The translations under genes and the position numbers were made by a program. DNA of 64,000 nucleotides, from assembly GCA_963664115.2 (NCBI GenBank), contig CAXWPJ010000012.1, positions 224,001 through 288,000 of the forward strand, read 5' to 3'. The notes under the pieces were generated by a model, which saw only the letters and a program-made list of their open reading frames with translations, made no database searches and was not told where the DNA came from. This document shows, piece after piece, positions 36,862-45,095 of the stretch. Every line of letters begins with the position of its first letter. The stretch's first letter is position 1. The stretch comes from Terriglobia bacterium. Its GTDB lineage: Bacteria; Acidobacteriota; Terriglobia; 20CM-2-55-15.

Positions 36862-38043
36862 ATGACTTCAGCTCTCACCCATCTCGAGTGTTCCCGTCCA
36901 GACTGCAGGGAAGCGATGACCCATTCTGCTCTGCAGAACCTTTGTACCGTTTGTAATTCACCACTACTTGCCAGGTACGATCTTTCCCTTGCGAAACAGA
37001 CGCTCTCGCTCGAATCACTGCGCGCGCGCCCACAAACCCTTTGGCGATACCAGGAGGTTCTTCCGGGCGCGGGGACGGTCTCACTCGGGGAGGGTATGAC
37101 GCCGTTGATCCACGCCAAAAACCTGGGCCGGGATATGGGGCTCAATCGGCTTTACATCAAGGATGAAGGACTCAACCCGACGGGTTCGTTTAAAGCTCGG
37201 GGGCTTTCGGCGGCCATCAGCATGGCTGCGGCTCTTGGCGCAAGAACCATCGCCCTTCCGACTGCCGGGAACGCCGGCGGTGCCGCAGCGGCCTATGCGG
37301 CGAAGGCAAATCTCCCCTGCGTTATCGCAATGCCAGTCGATACGCCGGCGGCTAACATCTTAGAATCTCGCGCCTTCGGTGCGGACGTCCGTCTGATCGA
37401 TGGTCTCATATCGGATTGTGGAAAATTCATTGCGGACAACAAGACCGAACAGCACTGGTTCGAAGTTTCCACCTTGAAGGAACCCTACCGTATCGAAGGG
37501 AAGAAGACGATGGGCTATGAATTATGGGAGGGATTCGAAGGCCACCTGCCCGACGTGATCGTGTATCCGACCGGCGGTGGCGTTGGACTGATCGGGATGT
37601 GGAAAGCGTTCGAGGAAATGGAAACCATGGGATGGATCGGTAAGGAGCGTCCGCGCATGGTTGTCGCACAGGCGGCAGGCTGTGCGCCCGTCGTGAAAGC
37701 CTTCGAGGATCACAGTGATCACACGGAGTTTTGGAAAGACGCCAGGACTATTGCCTCGGGCCTGCGCGTCCCGAAGGCTTTAGGAGACTTTCTGATCCTT
37801 AAGAGTGTTTATGACAGTCACGGTGAAGCTGTGGCCGCAACCGACGATGAAATGATGACCGCCTGCCGCGACATGGCCGCGTTGGAAGGCATCTTCGCAG
37901 CGCCCGAAGGCGGGGCGGGGCTTGTCGCCGTGAAAAAGCTTGTCGACGGGGGAAAGATTCAGGCCGACGAAACGGTCGTGGTTTTCAACACAGGGAGCGG
38001 ATACAAGTACACCGAGGCCTGGCAGGCTGCTCTTGGAACGTGA
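36862..38043 (+). CDS. thrC: Threonine synthase (PLP fold type II)
   Basis: LGEGMTPL, KDEGLNPTGSFKARG, AGNAG, EGKKTMGYE, YPTGGGVG. Confidence 0.9.
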   Translation: MTSALTHLECSRPDCREAMTHSALQNLCTVCNSPLLARYDLSLAKQTLSLESLRARPQTLWRYQEVLPGAGTVSLGEGMTPLIHAKNLGRDMGLNRLYIKDEGLNPTGSFKARGLSAAISMAAALGARTIALPTAGNAGGAAAAYAAKANLPCVIAMPVDTPAANILESRAFGADVRLIDGLISDCGKFIADNKTEQHWFEVSTLKEPYRIEGKKTMGYELWEGFEGHLPDVIVYPTGGGVGLIGMWKAFEEMETMGWIGKERPRMVVAQAAGCAPVVKAFEDHSDHTEFWKDARTIASGLRVPKALGDFLILKSVYDSHGEAVAATDDEMMTACRDMAALEGIFAAPEGGAGLVAVKKLVDGGKIQADETVVVFNTGSGYKYTEAWQAALGT

Positions 38044-39470
38044 CCTCCGGACGATATTTGAAAGCGTTCCACGTTCTGGGCGGACCCCTGGTCTTTCTGT
38101 TGTTCCTTCTGCTTCCCATTGCGTCGATGAGCTTTCCGGTGCGCGGCAGTCTCGGCCTGCTCCTCTGGATGTCATGGTGGTGGATATTCGGAACCGTCCA
38201 TCTCGCAGTCACCGGGTTTCTGCCTCTCGTAGTCCTGGCTCTCTTCGATTTTCTTCCTGTCGGCAACATCCTTCCCGCATACGCGCAAGAGCTCGTCATT
38301 CTACTGATTGCGGCCAACATTCTGGCGACCCTGTGGAGCCGCTGGGGATTGGATCGCCGCATTGCACTGGTCTCCCTCATCGGAGTGGGAGTCAGCACGC
38401 GAAAACAGATCATGGTCTGGTTTGGTGTTGCGACGGTGTTGAGCACGTTTCTGCCAAACACTGTCGTGGCAGCGTCCATGATACCCATCGTCCTGGCCAT
38501 GCTGCGTTTCATCGGAATCGAGAACGTTGGCAAAAGCGCGTTCGGATCGGCGCTGCTGATTGCGGTCGCCTGGGGAACGAGCGTCGGCGGATTGGGGACG
38601 CCGCTCGGTGGTGCTCCAAATCTGCTCACCGTTCGGTTCGTGGAACAGGAAGTGATCGCGCACGAGTTCTTGTTCACAACGTGGGTGACGCGGATGCTGC
38701 CCTTGACCGTCCTCATTGCAGCGGTTTCGCTCGTCTTTATGAGGTTCGCATTCAAGCCCGAACTGGATCGGGTCGAAGGGACGCGGGAGTATTTCTCTCG
38801 GGAGCTCGGTGCACTCGGAAAGCTGACGCTGCCCGAAAAGTGGGGCCTGGGCCTGTTTCTTGCAGCCATACTGTTGGCGTTTTCACGCCAGTTTTATGCG
38901 TCGCTTCTACCTGGACTGACTCCCGCATTTGCGTTTTTGACCTGCGCCGTACTGTGCTTTGTGATTCGGCACAAGGGTGAGCCCATTCTGGAATGGGAGT
39001 ATGCCCAGAGTCACATGGTGTGGGGTTTGATCTATCTGTTTGCCGGGGGCTCGGCCCTTGGACAGGTCCTCACCGAGACCGGCACAGCACAATTTGTGGC
39101 CGAGCGGCTGGTTCCGCTGGCCGGCGGCGGAACCTTTCCCGCCGTCCTGGTTTTCTCATTCATGACGGTCGTGATCACGCAGATTACCAGCAACACCGCG
39201 GCCGTCGCCATCATCGTACCGATCACGATCAGTACGTTTCAGAGTCTGGGATTAAATCCGATTCCCTTCGTCTATATCGTCGCTGCGGCGGGCAATTGCG
39301 GCTTCATGCTACCGTCCTCCGCGGGCGGCTCCGCCATTGCTGCCGGTTACGGTGCGAATTTGAAAAGCATGTTCTCCTGGGGCCTGTGGCTGACCGTTCT
39401 GGTTTTCCTGGCGATTGTTGTTGCGGGATATCTGCTCGCTTCTTACTGGCCCGGCTTCGGAATCGCATGA
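38040..39470 (+). CDS. SLC13/DASS anion transporter
   Basis: GGLGTPLGGAPN, TSNTA, FMLP; GTGA-coupled to thrC. Confidence 0.92.
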   Translation: MTSGRYLKAFHVLGGPLVFLLFLLLPIASMSFPVRGSLGLLLWMSWWWIFGTVHLAVTGFLPLVVLALFDFLPVGNILPAYAQELVILLIAANILATLWSRWGLDRRIALVSLIGVGVSTRKQIMVWFGVATVLSTFLPNTVVAASMIPIVLAMLRFIGIENVGKSAFGSALLIAVAWGTSVGGLGTPLGGAPNLLTVRFVEQEVIAHEFLFTTWVTRMLPLTVLIAAVSLVFMRFAFKPELDRVEGTREYFSRELGALGKLTLPEKWGLGLFLAAILLAFSRQFYASLLPGLTPAFAFLTCAVLCFVIRHKGEPILEWEYAQSHMVWGLIYLFAGGSALGQVLTETGTAQFVAERLVPLAGGGTFPAVLVFSFMTVVITQITSNTAAVAIIVPITISTFQSLGLNPIPFVYIVAAAGNCGFMLPSSAGGSAIAAGYGANLKSMFSWGLWLTVLVFLAIVVAGYLLASYWPGFGIA

Positions 39471-39605
39471 TTCTCCTTTTGATCTGAGCCCTGGGTCCTG
39501 AGTTCAGTGTCGATTTGATAGCGCCCGTCGCTTAGTTATCCGCCCCCGTTGACGATACTGGATGCACACTGGAAGAGCGCCGTGATGCTGTAAGATACTC
39601 AGGAA

Positions 39606-40308
39606 ATGAGCCAGCCCGATATTGATCTATATGAAGTCATCCGGGAGTTGGATTCCGGCCGCACGCATTTCGATCGACTGTCCGGGCCTGTGACCCAAGC
39701 TCTGTCCCACAGACTCGGCCTGGATTCGGAAGCGATACGAGCTCTGTTTGACAACCGTGCCGAGAGGGAGCGCAATGCGCCGAGGACGGGCGGCCCGGCA
39801 CCCGATTTCAACCTTGAGCTGCTGGACCCTCAGGACTCTGGAGCCAGCCAGAGGTGCAGGCTGTTCGACCATCTGGACAAGCCGGTTGCATTGATTTTTG
39901 GTTCCTAGCACCTGACCGCCGTTTCGTGCCGAGGCCGGGCGTCTCAATCATGTCTACGAGCGATTCAAGGGCGCGACCCACTTCTTCTGCGTATACATAC
40001 AGGAGGCGCATCCCGAAGACGGATGGCAGCGTCCGGCCAATCTTGCCGACTCGGTCGTGTTCGACCAACCCAAGACGATGGAAGAAAGGGTCAGCGTCGC
40101 CCAGGTGTGCATTGGCCATCTCCAATTGGCAATGCCCATGCTGCTGGACGACATGCGAAACTCCACCGATCTGGCATACGCCGCGCTGCCTGAGCGTCTG
40201 TATGTCGTCGGCACGGATGGGACCGTTGTTTACAAGTCGGCTCCCGGTCCCTTTGGATTCGACGTCGGTGGCTGGGAGCAGGCGATTTCGGATCTGCCAG
40301 GCCGGTAG
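39606..40308 (+). CDS. Iodothyronine-deiodinase-like selenoprotein, interrupted by a 1-nt insertion (G39908); pseudogene or sequence error
   Basis: APDFNL...KPVALIFGS-TA(g)C-ACC-TGA(39913-39915)-PPF...YIQEAHPEDGW...AYAALPERLYVV...GPFGF. Confidence 0.85.
39931..39945 (+). promoter_or_regulatory. Candidate SECIS hairpin
   Basis: GAGGC-CGGGC-GTCTC (one G-U pair) at +16..+30 after UGA. Confidence 0.6.
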
Positions 40309-40576
40309 GGTCTTTCGACCTCAACGGCGATGGCCGGGTGCCGGCAAATCCCTTGGGCTCAAAGTTACGATCCAGACCCCGCCCGAAAAATTCACGAAGG
40401 TTGCAGCCCCCTCGACCTGCTCTGAAAATCAGGCTAAACTGCTGGCCTCTGTCAAGCGACTTAACATCACAGCGAGGTAGGGATTGCGAAAACCGCGGAG
40501 CCAATCAAGGAATTAATAGACCAGCCTGACATAATAGAAACGTCGTGGGTCACTGCGCCCATCATGGAGGTGTGCT

Positions 40577-41884
40577 ATGGCAGACAAACCGAAGAAACCG
40601 GAATTCATTCCCGTCAACGAAGATGATCTCCAACCCGGTCATCGCTGGCACCGGCCGCTTCAGGCACCGGGCACGACACAGGTCGATTTCGAGGAGCGCG
40701 TCGATTTTCGACGCTTGCACCGGTATCGCCTGGCACGCACACGCCAGCAACTCGCAAATTCGGGGCTGGGCGCGGTGCTCTGCTTCGAGCAGGCCAACAT
40801 CCGCTACGTTTCAAGCACGGTCATCGGTGAGTGGGCGCGTGACAAGTTGCTCCGGTATTGCCTGCTCACGGGCACCGGTGACCCCTGGGTCTGGGACATG
40901 GGTTCGGCGGTACTCCACCACAAACTCAACTGCCCGTGGCTCCGGGAAGATCACATGCTTCCCGGCAATCCGGGAATGCGCGGCGCAATCGAGCCCGAGG
41001 TCGGTTTGTTCAAGCTCGCGGCAAAGGAGATCAAGGAGATTCTTCGGAAGGAAGGCGTTGCCGACATGCCGCTGGGCGTCGATCTGGCCGAGCTCCCGAT
41101 GGTATTCGCCTTGCAGGAAGAAGGCATCGATGTGCGTGACGGCCAGCAGACGATGCTCAACGCACGCGTGATCAAGAGCCACGACGAGATCACACTTCTC
41201 AACATCGCAGCGAGCATGGTTGACGGCGTGTACACGGACATCGCTGAAGCTCTCAAGCCGGGAGTCAAGGAAAGCCAGATCGTATCGCTCGCGGCAGGGC
41301 GCTTGTACGAAATGGGATCGGACTGCGTTGAAGCGATCAACGCTATTTCCGGAGAGCGCTGCAGCCCGCATCCGCATAATTTCACCGATAGGCTGATCCG
41401 TCCGGGCGATCAGGCTTACTTCGACATCATCCACTCCTTTATGGGCTACCGTACCTGTTATTACCGCACCTTCACCGTCGGCAGCTCGACGCCCGCGCAG
41501 CGAGACGCGTACAAGCGCGCGCGGGAGTGGATCGACGGTACCATTTCCATGCTCCGGCCCGGTGTCGGCACCGACGAGGCGGCCAAGATGCTTCCCGAGG
41601 CCTCCGAGATCGGTTTCGAGAGCGAGATGTCAGCCTACGGTCTCAACTTCGCCCACGGCCTGGGACTGTCGTTACACGAGCGCCCGCTGATTTCGAGAGT
41701 GAACTCGCTCATCAAGCCCAATGAGTTGCAGGCGGGCATGGTGTTCGCGGTCGAGACTTTCTGTCCGGCCACAGACGGAGTTTCCGCAGCGCGAATCGAG
41801 GAAGAGGTTGTGTTGACGCCCGAAGGAGCCAAGATCATCACGCTGTTCCCGGCACAGGAATTGCCCGTCGCAAATCCCAATTGA
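40577..41884 (+). CDS. Xaa-Pro aminopeptidase-like (M24) protein
   Basis: GGAGG RBS; IKS..EI, HGLGLSLHERP, MVFAVE, ARIEEEV. Confidence 0.9.
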   Translation: MADKPKKPEFIPVNEDDLQPGHRWHRPLQAPGTTQVDFEERVDFRRLHRYRLARTRQQLANSGLGAVLCFEQANIRYVSSTVIGEWARDKLLRYCLLTGTGDPWVWDMGSAVLHHKLNCPWLREDHMLPGNPGMRGAIEPEVGLFKLAAKEIKEILRKEGVADMPLGVDLAELPMVFALQEEGIDVRDGQQTMLNARVIKSHDEITLLNIAASMVDGVYTDIAEALKPGVKESQIVSLAAGRLYEMGSDCVEAINAISGERCSPHPHNFTDRLIRPGDQAYFDIIHSFMGYRTCYYRTFTVGSSTPAQRDAYKRAREWIDGTISMLRPGVGTDEAAKMLPEASEIGFESEMSAYGLNFAHGLGLSLHERPLISRVNSLIKPNELQAGMVFAVETFCPATDGVSAARIEEEVVLTPEGAKIITLFPAQELPVANPN

Positions 41885-43898: not shown

Positions 43899-45095
43899 TC
43901 AGGGTCGTTGGCCTCGCCCGCTGCGCATCTCGTCGAAGGTCAGAAAGCCGTCGCCATTCGCGTCCAGCATCCGGAACATCGCCTCGGGGCCCGTCCACTC
44001 ATCTGAAGAAACCTGTCCGTCACCGTTGGCATCGATGCTCTGGAAGCGAGCCCCGGGATCACCGCCACGCGCTCCCCGTAGCGGTCGACCTCCGCGGGCC
44101 AGACCGGCACCGGCCCTTAGTTCTTCCTCTGCCAAGACGCCGTCACCGTTCTCGTCGAGCAACTCGAACATCGGATCGGGACCGGGGAACTCCTCGGGTG
44201 AGATCCGACCATCGCTGTTGGTGTCCATGCTCTCAAATCGCGCCTGAGGGTTTCCGCCCCGGCCTCGACCACCGAAAGCGCCGCCCTGGATTTCGTCTCG
44301 GGTGAGATAGCCGTCGTCGTTCGTGTCAAAACGGTCGAATGCGTCTCGGTCGCCTTGCCATTCGTCGGCCGAAATCTGGCCGTCCTCATCCGTATCCATG
44401 ACGCCCATTCCCTGGCCGTCGGCCCTCGGTCCCTGGAATCGTCCGCCCCCACCCTGCCGTCCCCGTCCGAACGACCTCTGCACGGGTTGCTGGCCATAGG
44501 GTGTGATGCCGCCCTCCATGGCCACTTCAAGTGCTGCCATGGCTTCGGGAACATTGAAGCCCGCAGGACCGGGAAGCCCCTTGTAGGAAACCCGGCCATC
44601 GCTGCCGATAATGTAGATGCGGTCCGGGAATGCCGCGTAAGCGTTGGCCACGCGGTCGTCGATCTTGTCGAGGATGGTTGGCAGGGTCACCTGTAACGCA
44701 ATCGTACAGAGTTCGGCTGCCTCTCTGCGTTCCGCATCGGTGGTCGGTTGTTCGATCAACACACCTTCGAGGACGTTTCCAACTCCGAGATTCCCGTCGA
44801 CGGGATGGGCTTCGCGGATATAAACAAAGAAGAAGTTGACCCGGTCCTTGTTGTCCTGGTACCAGTTTTCGATGTCGCCGACATCGCGCCTGAACGGACC
44901 TCAGGTATAGCTGGCGAACACCAGTGCGGTGGGTCTTCCCTGAAATTCGGAAAGAGTGATGGCCTGACTGCCGTCTTTAGTATTGAGCGTGAAGTCGGGT
45001 GCCTCATCCCCCGGCATGGGGCCCTGCCCCTGTCTCTGGCCCATTCCCGTCGCCGAGACAGCAAGCAGAAAAACTAAGATTTGCAGAACTCTCAT
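43899..45095 (-). CDS. Secreted deiodinase-like selenoprotein (Sec65) fused to six EF-hands, 398 aa
   Basis: Signal peptide; APDFTL...RPTALVFASYT-TGA(44903-44901)-GPF...YIREAHPVDG...AYAAFPDRIY...GPAGF, in frame with track ORF 43899-44762; six DxxxDG EF loops. Confidence 0.92.
44870..44886 (-). promoter_or_regulatory. Candidate SECIS hairpin
   Basis: CGATGTC-GGC-GACATCG at +15..+31 after UGA. Confidence 0.72.

Follow-up and report, generated by a model that had tools for sequence, protein, structure and literature searches.

The deiodinase-like gene at positions 39606..40308 (+ strand) of the window, i.e. the whole stretch of 64,000 nucleotides of Terriglobia bacterium DNA that was analysed, is very probably a recently pseudogenised, dispensable member of a known bacterial deiodinase-like selenoprotein family. 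The reading is supported because the insertion that breaks the gene is real and derived, the sister allele L034 shows parallel decay, dN/dS is raised, the SECIS-like stem is weakened, the gene is dispensable and the selenocysteine (Sec) machinery is intact. Both a real lesion (4/4 assemblies) and an intact positional orthologue (in the genome G002) were found, and the gene is classed as a broken allele within the family rather than as a functioning member. It would be a clear example of one selenoprotein gene having been lost on two occasions in a single marine bacterial species, with the Sec machinery and three paralogues intact. The genome to which the window belongs comprises 4.89 Mb in 12 contigs and is 97% complete, and a VWA domain gene of the acidobacterial type (TIGR03436) in the window suggests Acidobacteriota; the sequencing runs with the window DNA are labelled as seawater or sponge metagenome, or bear coded organism labels.

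The sequence at 39897-39924 reads TTT GGT TCC TAG C ACC TGA CCG CCG TTT. As presently read, the frame-0 ORF (39606..39908, + strand) starts at the ATG at 39606, encodes 100 residues with the C-terminal FGS, the last of these codons being TCC (39903-05), and stops at TAG (39906-08). The inserted G at 39908 (+) converts the ancestral TAC (Tyr101) into TAG-C, an in-frame stop together with a +1 shift, and is followed by C at 39909 and ACC at 39910-12. The ancestral Sec codon TGA (39913..39915, +) presently lies in the +1 frame, and the reading frame is not continuous from the start codon to the Sec codon. After the break, the +1 frame reads T-U-PPF and stays open to the gene end, the 130 downstream codons (39916..40308, +) being open and conserved up to the final TAG (40306-08). 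With X for TAGC and U (Sec) for TGA, a protein of 233 residues with YIQEAHPEDGW and AYAALPERLY and with no further stop is obtained, as the first-pass annotation had described, and the window allele carries no second lesion. Its observation that the extra base is not in a homopolymer also holds, the closest run being T5, 9 nt upstream. The first 40 residues have no signal-like hydrophobic stretch (the most hydrophobic 11-mer scores 0.39, that of the paralogue 3.04), in agreement with the claimed lack of a signal peptide; the cytoplasmic location is borne out as a prediction from N-terminal hydropathy.

A split-gene model was ruled out, as no start codon occurs between TGA and the EAH motif; the earliest candidate internal starts (GTG 40057 and ATG 40078) are both 3' of this motif. 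Transcriptional slippage was rejected as well, since the nearest run is the T5, in which the loss of one T would turn FG into LV. A search for a sigma-70-like promoter gave 0 against 0.4 expected, and an atlas search with the N-terminal 60 residues returned no score reaching 0.9. Databases cut deiodinase-like proteins at the Sec codon, and many short C-terminal database proteins may be gene-caller products that begin after a Sec TGA.

The 233-residue reading matches Pfam T4_deiodinase PF00837 with an E value of 2.9e-32 and 112.3 bits (cut-off 27). Against NCBIfam NF038285 (deiodinase_rel) it scores 183.7 bits, below the cut-off of 250, since only positions 160-340 of 347 are covered, and the intact orthologue, with 185.8 bits, is likewise below 250. 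The best sequence matches, obtained via the intact orthologue, are mouse Dio3 (E 1.5e-24) and Dio2 (E 5.5e-18), and the model of the G002 orthologue (pLDDT 86.6) has Dio3 (4TR3, rmsd 2.6 Å) and Dio2 (9H48, rmsd 2.9 Å) as its top two Foldseek hits. The TGA aligns with the Sec of Dio3 and Dio2 in a column that is invariant in 27 aligned sequences chosen from 58, in which Ser100, Thr102, Sec103, Tyr130, Glu133, His135 and Cys168 are invariant. The prokaryotic deiodinase-like family has been known since 2005, when a redox role was suggested for it (Zhang, Fomenko and Gladyshev 2005, PMC1088965), and it is included in reviews (PMC9312934, PMC13188914), where a UxxC motif is given for it. The gene resembles the prokaryotic deiodinase-like proteins (PF00837) in its thioredoxin-type fold, the TGA at the catalytic position, a putative downstream hairpin and the EAH motif. 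It differs from them in a soluble helical N-terminal extension devoid of signal peptide or membrane anchor, in the frameshift of the window allele, through which Sec insertion alone cannot read, and in that its subfamily has UPPF and a Cys 65 residues downstream instead of the UxxC motif.

The extra G is present in 4/4 run assemblies (X1, X4, X6 and X7), which come from four studies with four organism labels and span 39500-40400 with 0 gaps, with 0, 0, 0 and 1 substitutions and at depths of 5.5-22.8; this evidence consists of assemblies, not raw reads, and one run may be the source of the window. The 100-residue product is the same protein on four contigs (NCBI, Logan and ENA), the longest of 1.33 Mb. 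A short fifth piece (X18) carries the G without a gap, with only 9 letters on the 5' side; under the bridging rule of 31 letters this piece and the assembly X13 (23 letters on the 3' side) fall short and serve as corroboration only. The assembly X12, examined over 57% of the run, gave unrelated pieces that do not include the site. Privacy of TAGC to this strain had been named as an argument for a pseudogene; the allele is found in samples under four organism labels and hence is not confined to one strain, yet within the species it is restricted to a single allele lineage.

Sequence comparison indicates that the extra G is recent, derived and not conserved, because the positional orthologue in G002 (84% nucleotide and 81% amino acid identity, with the same thrC-transporter-gene order) and the orthologue in G003 (61% amino acid identity) both read TAC ACC TGA, the 95%-identical assembly X19, in which the gene is spanned with 44 differences over the stretch, lacks the G, and of 13 proteins that the N-terminal ORF retrieved, 11 have FGSYT as their C-terminus. 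Of the other two, one is the present ORF itself and one diverges earlier. X13, which bridges the site by 23 letters only, is also without the G. The comparison of TAGC with TAC among orthologues, proposed in the first-pass annotation, therefore gave TAC in G002 and G003, and no extra G in L034 and X19.

The threonine synthase and DASS-family transporter genes at 36862..39470 (+) precede the G002 orthologue in the same order. In G001 and G004 they occur with no deiodinase-like gene behind them, and a protein search of these two genomes did not find the orthologue either. The gene is therefore accessory or dispensable, since the conserved upstream genes of G001 and G004 persist in its absence and three intact paralogues, with TGA and good hairpins, exist in the window's genome. 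As selA, selB, a Sec-containing selD and tRNA-Sec(UCA) are intact in the same genome, the breakage is specific to the gene.

Further evidence of decay is provided by L034 (metagenome contig Ga0310121_10203380), one of four loci returned by the search, which is 98.6% identical to the window over 1,205 nt. Its Sec site reads TAC ACC TAA; the extra G is absent and the TGA has become TAA by a change that matches window position 39914. L034 also carries E160G, G232S, a change of the stop TAG to CAG (matching window 40306), which lengthens its C-terminal ORF to 115 residues (P0019), and two silent changes. All six substitutions are derived, as G002 agrees with the window at each. The alignment indicates that the two lesions arose independently, 6 nt apart, at the Sec site. 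In the next gene, an M24 peptidase gene (40577..41884, +) used as a control, 6/6 differences between the window and L034 are synonymous; the contrast between gene and control gives a two-sided Fisher p of 0.06 when Sec loss and stop loss are counted as non-silent, and p 0.13 for missense changes alone. The difference counts of the X13 pieces (2, 0 and 3) fit L034, and the stored proteins P0015 and P0019 have matching changes. X13 thus likely carries the L034 allele, and the records are possibly non-independent. When the window allele was compared with L034, no derived change was found in its 3' half, which has been counted against the pseudogene reading; the absence of a second lesion fits a recent origin and is no proof of decay.

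Selection on the gene was assessed against G002, where dN/dS is 0.31 (0.35 for the 5' half and 0.27 for the 3' half), as compared to a median of 0.143 for 105 orthologue pairs, 4/105 of which are as high as the gene; the reference pairs derive from a 400-kb sample from which pairs above 0.6 were filtered out as shadow frames. The tree branch of the window's protein is 0.16 against 0.023 for that of G002, but a relative-rate test, counted against the pseudogene reading, yielded a non-significant 11 vs 3 (p 0.057). For an intact paralogue the corresponding counts were 16 vs 6 with one outgroup and 9 vs 11 with another, and relatives whose ORFs end in FGSYT share the excess of N-terminal changes.

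The SECIS-like stem-loop GAGGC-CGGGC-GTCTC (39931..39945, +) begins 16 nt after the TGA, has five pairs and a G-rich loop, and occupies the same position as in orthologues and paralogues. The hairpin had been described as intact. This is correct inasmuch as all five pairs can form, but at T39942 the G-C pair of G002 and G003 is replaced by G.U, with −3.9 as compared to −6.6 kcal/mol, and the stem is weakened in both alleles. Its pair probability is 0.35 in the window, 0.83 in G002 and 0.34 in the intact G003, the last of these being counted against the pseudogene reading. The 63 nt after the TGA fold no better than shuffles (z +1.35), and the hairpin is not the lowest-energy fold.

Mid-gene frameshifts elsewhere in the genome affect 7 of ~600 loci shared with G002 (~1%) over 2.0 Mb of G002, about a third; of 23 flagged rows, 11 with in-frame stops were set aside on inspection because they are probably antisense shadow ORFs, and the other 12, all frameshifts, correspond to the seven loci. 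Such frameshifts in shared genes are uncommon, a point counted against the pseudogene reading, but ordinary here. Five non-transposase genes appear to be frameshifted in mid-gene relative to G002 (G000:C2:115425-113991, C9:393173-391796, C10:460297-458978, C5:137604-138660 and C7:83191-84579); one of them is GAF-domain-like and has CCT TGA C two codons past the junction.

In the class scan, 136/401 genomes have a deiodinase-like match. Among the matches listed (150 of 155), 146 belong to other genomes, and by hand count 130 of these have one TGA, 15 no stop and one three stops. Seven partial-cover rows were inspected, two of which are intact. Broken genes include one with extra stops and a late shift (G281, L209), two with late frameshifts away from the Sec codon (G225, L213; G181, L214) and one match that ends early (G357). 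A distant deiodinase-like gene (L208, G206:C717, near position 980) has a candidate +1 insertion in the FGSY motif, ~10 nt before the TGA, in an assembly of 810 contigs that is 84% complete; this insertion in the same motif is counted against the pseudogene reading; it affects a different base from that of the window and makes no stop at the junction. The occurrence of mid-gene frameshifts at other loci and of broken deiodinase-like genes scattered in the class supports the pseudogene reading. As selA occurs in 314/401 genomes of the class, TGA in the family is compatible with Sec rather than with a natural split. Deiodinase-like genes in the class nearly all have TGA, and their architectures include a signal peptide with EF-hands, long N-terminal domains and membrane-anchored forms; the Cys 65 residues after Sec is nearly invariant class-wide.

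In a pseudogene of this kind, RF1 would terminate at the UAG two codons before the Sec codon, and the product would be a fragment of 100 residues that is likely inactive. Judging from the structural model, the fragment would contain only one core strand of the thioredoxin fold, the first, and would end after it, without the catalytic residues from Thr102 on. Selection on the dispensable enzyme is likely relaxed in the species. Traces of full-length protein might arise by incidental +1 slippage, which would leave the pseudogene reading unchanged. Disrupted Salmonella genes are reported to yield peptides from beyond the break, on average at ~10% of the level of their intact homologues, and UAG and a flanking C to be over-represented among read-through stops (Feng et al. 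2022, PMC9122581). The window gene is like these 'pseudo-pseudogenes' in that a single lesion lies in an otherwise intact gene and is defined against a positional orthologue. It is unlike them in that stop and frameshift coincide and Sec insertion is needed two codons later; by analogy, any leak would be lower than at ordinary leaky stops, given these two features.

The alternative that survives best, though an improbable one, is selected loss or truncation, in which the alleles were favoured because Sec insertion ceased, which would save selenium or abolish a harmful activity, or because the N-terminal part of 100-102 residues is useful on its own. The two independent lesions lie within 6 nt at the Sec site, which also counts against the pseudogene reading; each turns a leaky Sec site into a hard stop, and there is no upstream frame break. 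In addition, samples under four organism labels carry a near-clonal G allele, and every allele of the species with a readable site is broken, either in the window type or in the L034 type. The clustering, however, has a chance of 0.06-0.14 for the second lesion, the Sec codon receiving 9/66 of inactivating single-base changes overall and 1/16 of those by G>A/C>T, and the first lesion was noticed for its location; it is thus suggestive, not significant. Selected loss or truncation is further opposed by the 5' half, which is no more constrained than the 3' half (dN/dS 0.35 vs 0.27), by the model of the G002 orthologue, in which the fragment would end inside the fold, and by the other selenoprotein genes of the genome, which retain TGA. 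Parallel loss at the Sec site is the one detail worth keeping, the importance of the gene being otherwise modest.

Unlikely, and more so than selected loss, is a recoding in which Sec insertion is combined with a programmed +1 frameshift at UCC UAG C. The ribosome would pause at UAG, shift by +1 and read AGC ACC UGA, giving FGS-S-T-U-PPF at a regulated low level. In its boldest form, no more credible, the TAGC allele would be a young working double-recoding site that throttles the selenoenzyme to a low selected level, with the SelB-SECIS complex as the pause and the sister lineage switched off. The site has the geometry of the shifty stops of prfB and antizyme, i.e. a stop followed by C at the frame 0/+1 junction. 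UCC in the P site followed by a stop is described as the customary +1 site of antizyme, and a C behind the stop in RF2 genes as reducing termination (PMC5009743). Downstream, the frame is open throughout, and animal Dio2 is reported to tolerate a small non-Cys residue at the position equivalent to Tyr101 (PMC9141512). However, the break is not conserved, being absent from L034, X19, G002 and G003. In bacterial RF2 genes the shift is described as taking place at CUU UGA C, behind a conserved Shine-Dalgarno element, and of 32 variants tested before UAG none came close to CUU_U; antizyme shifting is described as eukaryotic and polyamine-driven (PMC5009743). The gene has neither the CUU_U or UUU_U site nor the upstream Shine-Dalgarno-like stimulator of the prfB type; its site is UCC_U, preceded by GCATTGATTTTTGGT, with no G-rich Shine-Dalgarno-like element, whereas such elements do precede two CTT TGA C sites in the same genome. 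Moreover, the re-pairing of tRNA-Ser(GGA) to CCU would entail a mismatch at the first position. The genome uses TAG as an ordinary stop (459/1,535 long ORFs, 127 of them as TAGC), TAG occurs at the junction in 0/7 of the other frameshifted loci, and the G206 insertion, at its different base, creates no stop.

Pattern searches also argue against a recoded site. When all of GTDB was scanned for one additional base between the Ser and Thr codons, 15 hits were obtained, 0 of them deiodinase-like; the pattern permitted the extra base solely between these codons, so that insertions of the G206 type were outside its reach. In the phylum sample (401 genomes), 40 matches were obtained with a pattern in which the shift could be −1, 0 or +1, comprising this window, 33 in-frame S-x-T-TGA motifs and six unrelated-looking ones, and the reversed control pattern gave 5. 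Among the other published genomes of this sample (G423 excluded) there were 0 shifted against 32 in-frame motifs. No other TAG-creating insertion was found in the class, phylum or GTDB scans. In the literature searched, no description was found of frameshifting and Sec insertion combined over a span of three codons, as double recoding would be if true. The case provides a caution that a real and widely shared frameshift beside a Sec codon is no evidence for recoding.

Still more doubtful is an altered decoding, in which a quadruplet or amber tRNA reads TAGC, or a variant tRNA-Sec reads TAA in the sister allele. tRNA-Sec with non-UCA anticodons are reported to exist in nature (PMC7609411), and the window's genome has two odd tRNA genes; however, these have UAC and GCU anticodons, none of the 52 tRNA genes listed for this genome has a CUA or extra-base anticodon, the single tRNA-Sec has the anticodon UCA, and the TAA allele additionally has a lost stop codon and missense changes. 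One of the odd genes (L207, G000:C9:543440-543527, − strand) is an extra tRNA with a UAC (Val) anticodon, a long variable arm, a 6-pair anticodon stem, a G discriminator and a Ser-like body, and from these features could be a missense or allo-tRNA-like gene. The canonical Val(UAC) tRNA is also present, at C7:70931, and a search of five relatives, run with no positive control, did not find the L207 tRNA. The other (G000:C9:320103-320177) is a 75-nt tRNA called as Ser(GCU) with a short variable arm and an A discriminator, a normal long Ser(GCU) being located elsewhere. Least probable of all, to the point of being negligible, is an assembly or sequencing error: the evidence at the site comes from assemblies and one run is possibly the window's own source, but the same G occurs in 4/4 run contigs from four studies over the whole gene, in the X18 piece and in the 100-residue product on four contigs. 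Of the three origins offered in the first-pass annotation, an assembly error is therefore largely refuted, recent inactivation is supported, and recoding, which it had itself rated least likely, is without support.

The intact ancestor of the pseudogene is predicted to be a soluble, cytoplasmic selenoenzyme of thioredoxin fold. The Sec103 selenolate, with a network of Ser100, Thr102, Tyr130, Glu133 and His135, would reduce a small substrate, putatively a halogenated aromatic or a peroxide, and the oxidised Sec might be resolved or recycled through the invariant Cys168. By residue conservation, the intact enzyme may thus be a thiol-dependent reductase whose selenolate attacks halogen or peroxide. 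The Ser/Thr/Tyr/Glu/His group corresponds to a proton relay proposed for animal deiodinases (PMC11592359), of which the Ser, Thr, Tyr, Glu and first His are kept as in Dio3 and Dio2. The protein is unlike these enzymes in that the proximal Cys, described as required for the glutathione recycling of DIO1 (PMC9141512), is replaced by Tyr101, Pro155 occupies the aligned position of the second relay His, the register of the distal Cys differs (Cys168 at Sec+65 vs +69 to +76), and a membrane anchor is lacking. No paper linking sponges, Acidobacteriota and deiodinase was found in the literature searched, and titles and abstract openings of the literature found mention no substrate assay for bacterial deiodinase-like proteins. 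The intact G002 orthologue, as a soluble bacterial deiodinase-like protein, would be a convenient candidate for probing the function of the family.

The intact paralogue on the − strand (43899..45095) has a signal-peptide-like N-terminus, a deiodinase-like domain, a TGA at 44903-44901, a 7-pair hairpin and C-terminal EF-hands. Its Sec site reads AGC TAT ACC TGA (45095-43899, 3,590 nt away), as reported in the first-pass annotation. The further proposal there, that the gene is a cytoplasmic counterpart of this secreted enzyme, is not supported as a linkage: the two proteins belong to different well-supported subfamilies, are 39% identical and are not neighbours in the G002 and G003 stretches examined. 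The paralogue looks like a member of an old, unlinked subfamily and no partner, its proximity being incidental. The C-terminal part of the paralogue (43899-44500, −) consists of Gly/Arg-rich EF-hand repeats, with Pfam EF-hand hits and a weak lanmodulin match below cut-off; this sequence suggests metal binding fused to a secreted selenoenzyme.
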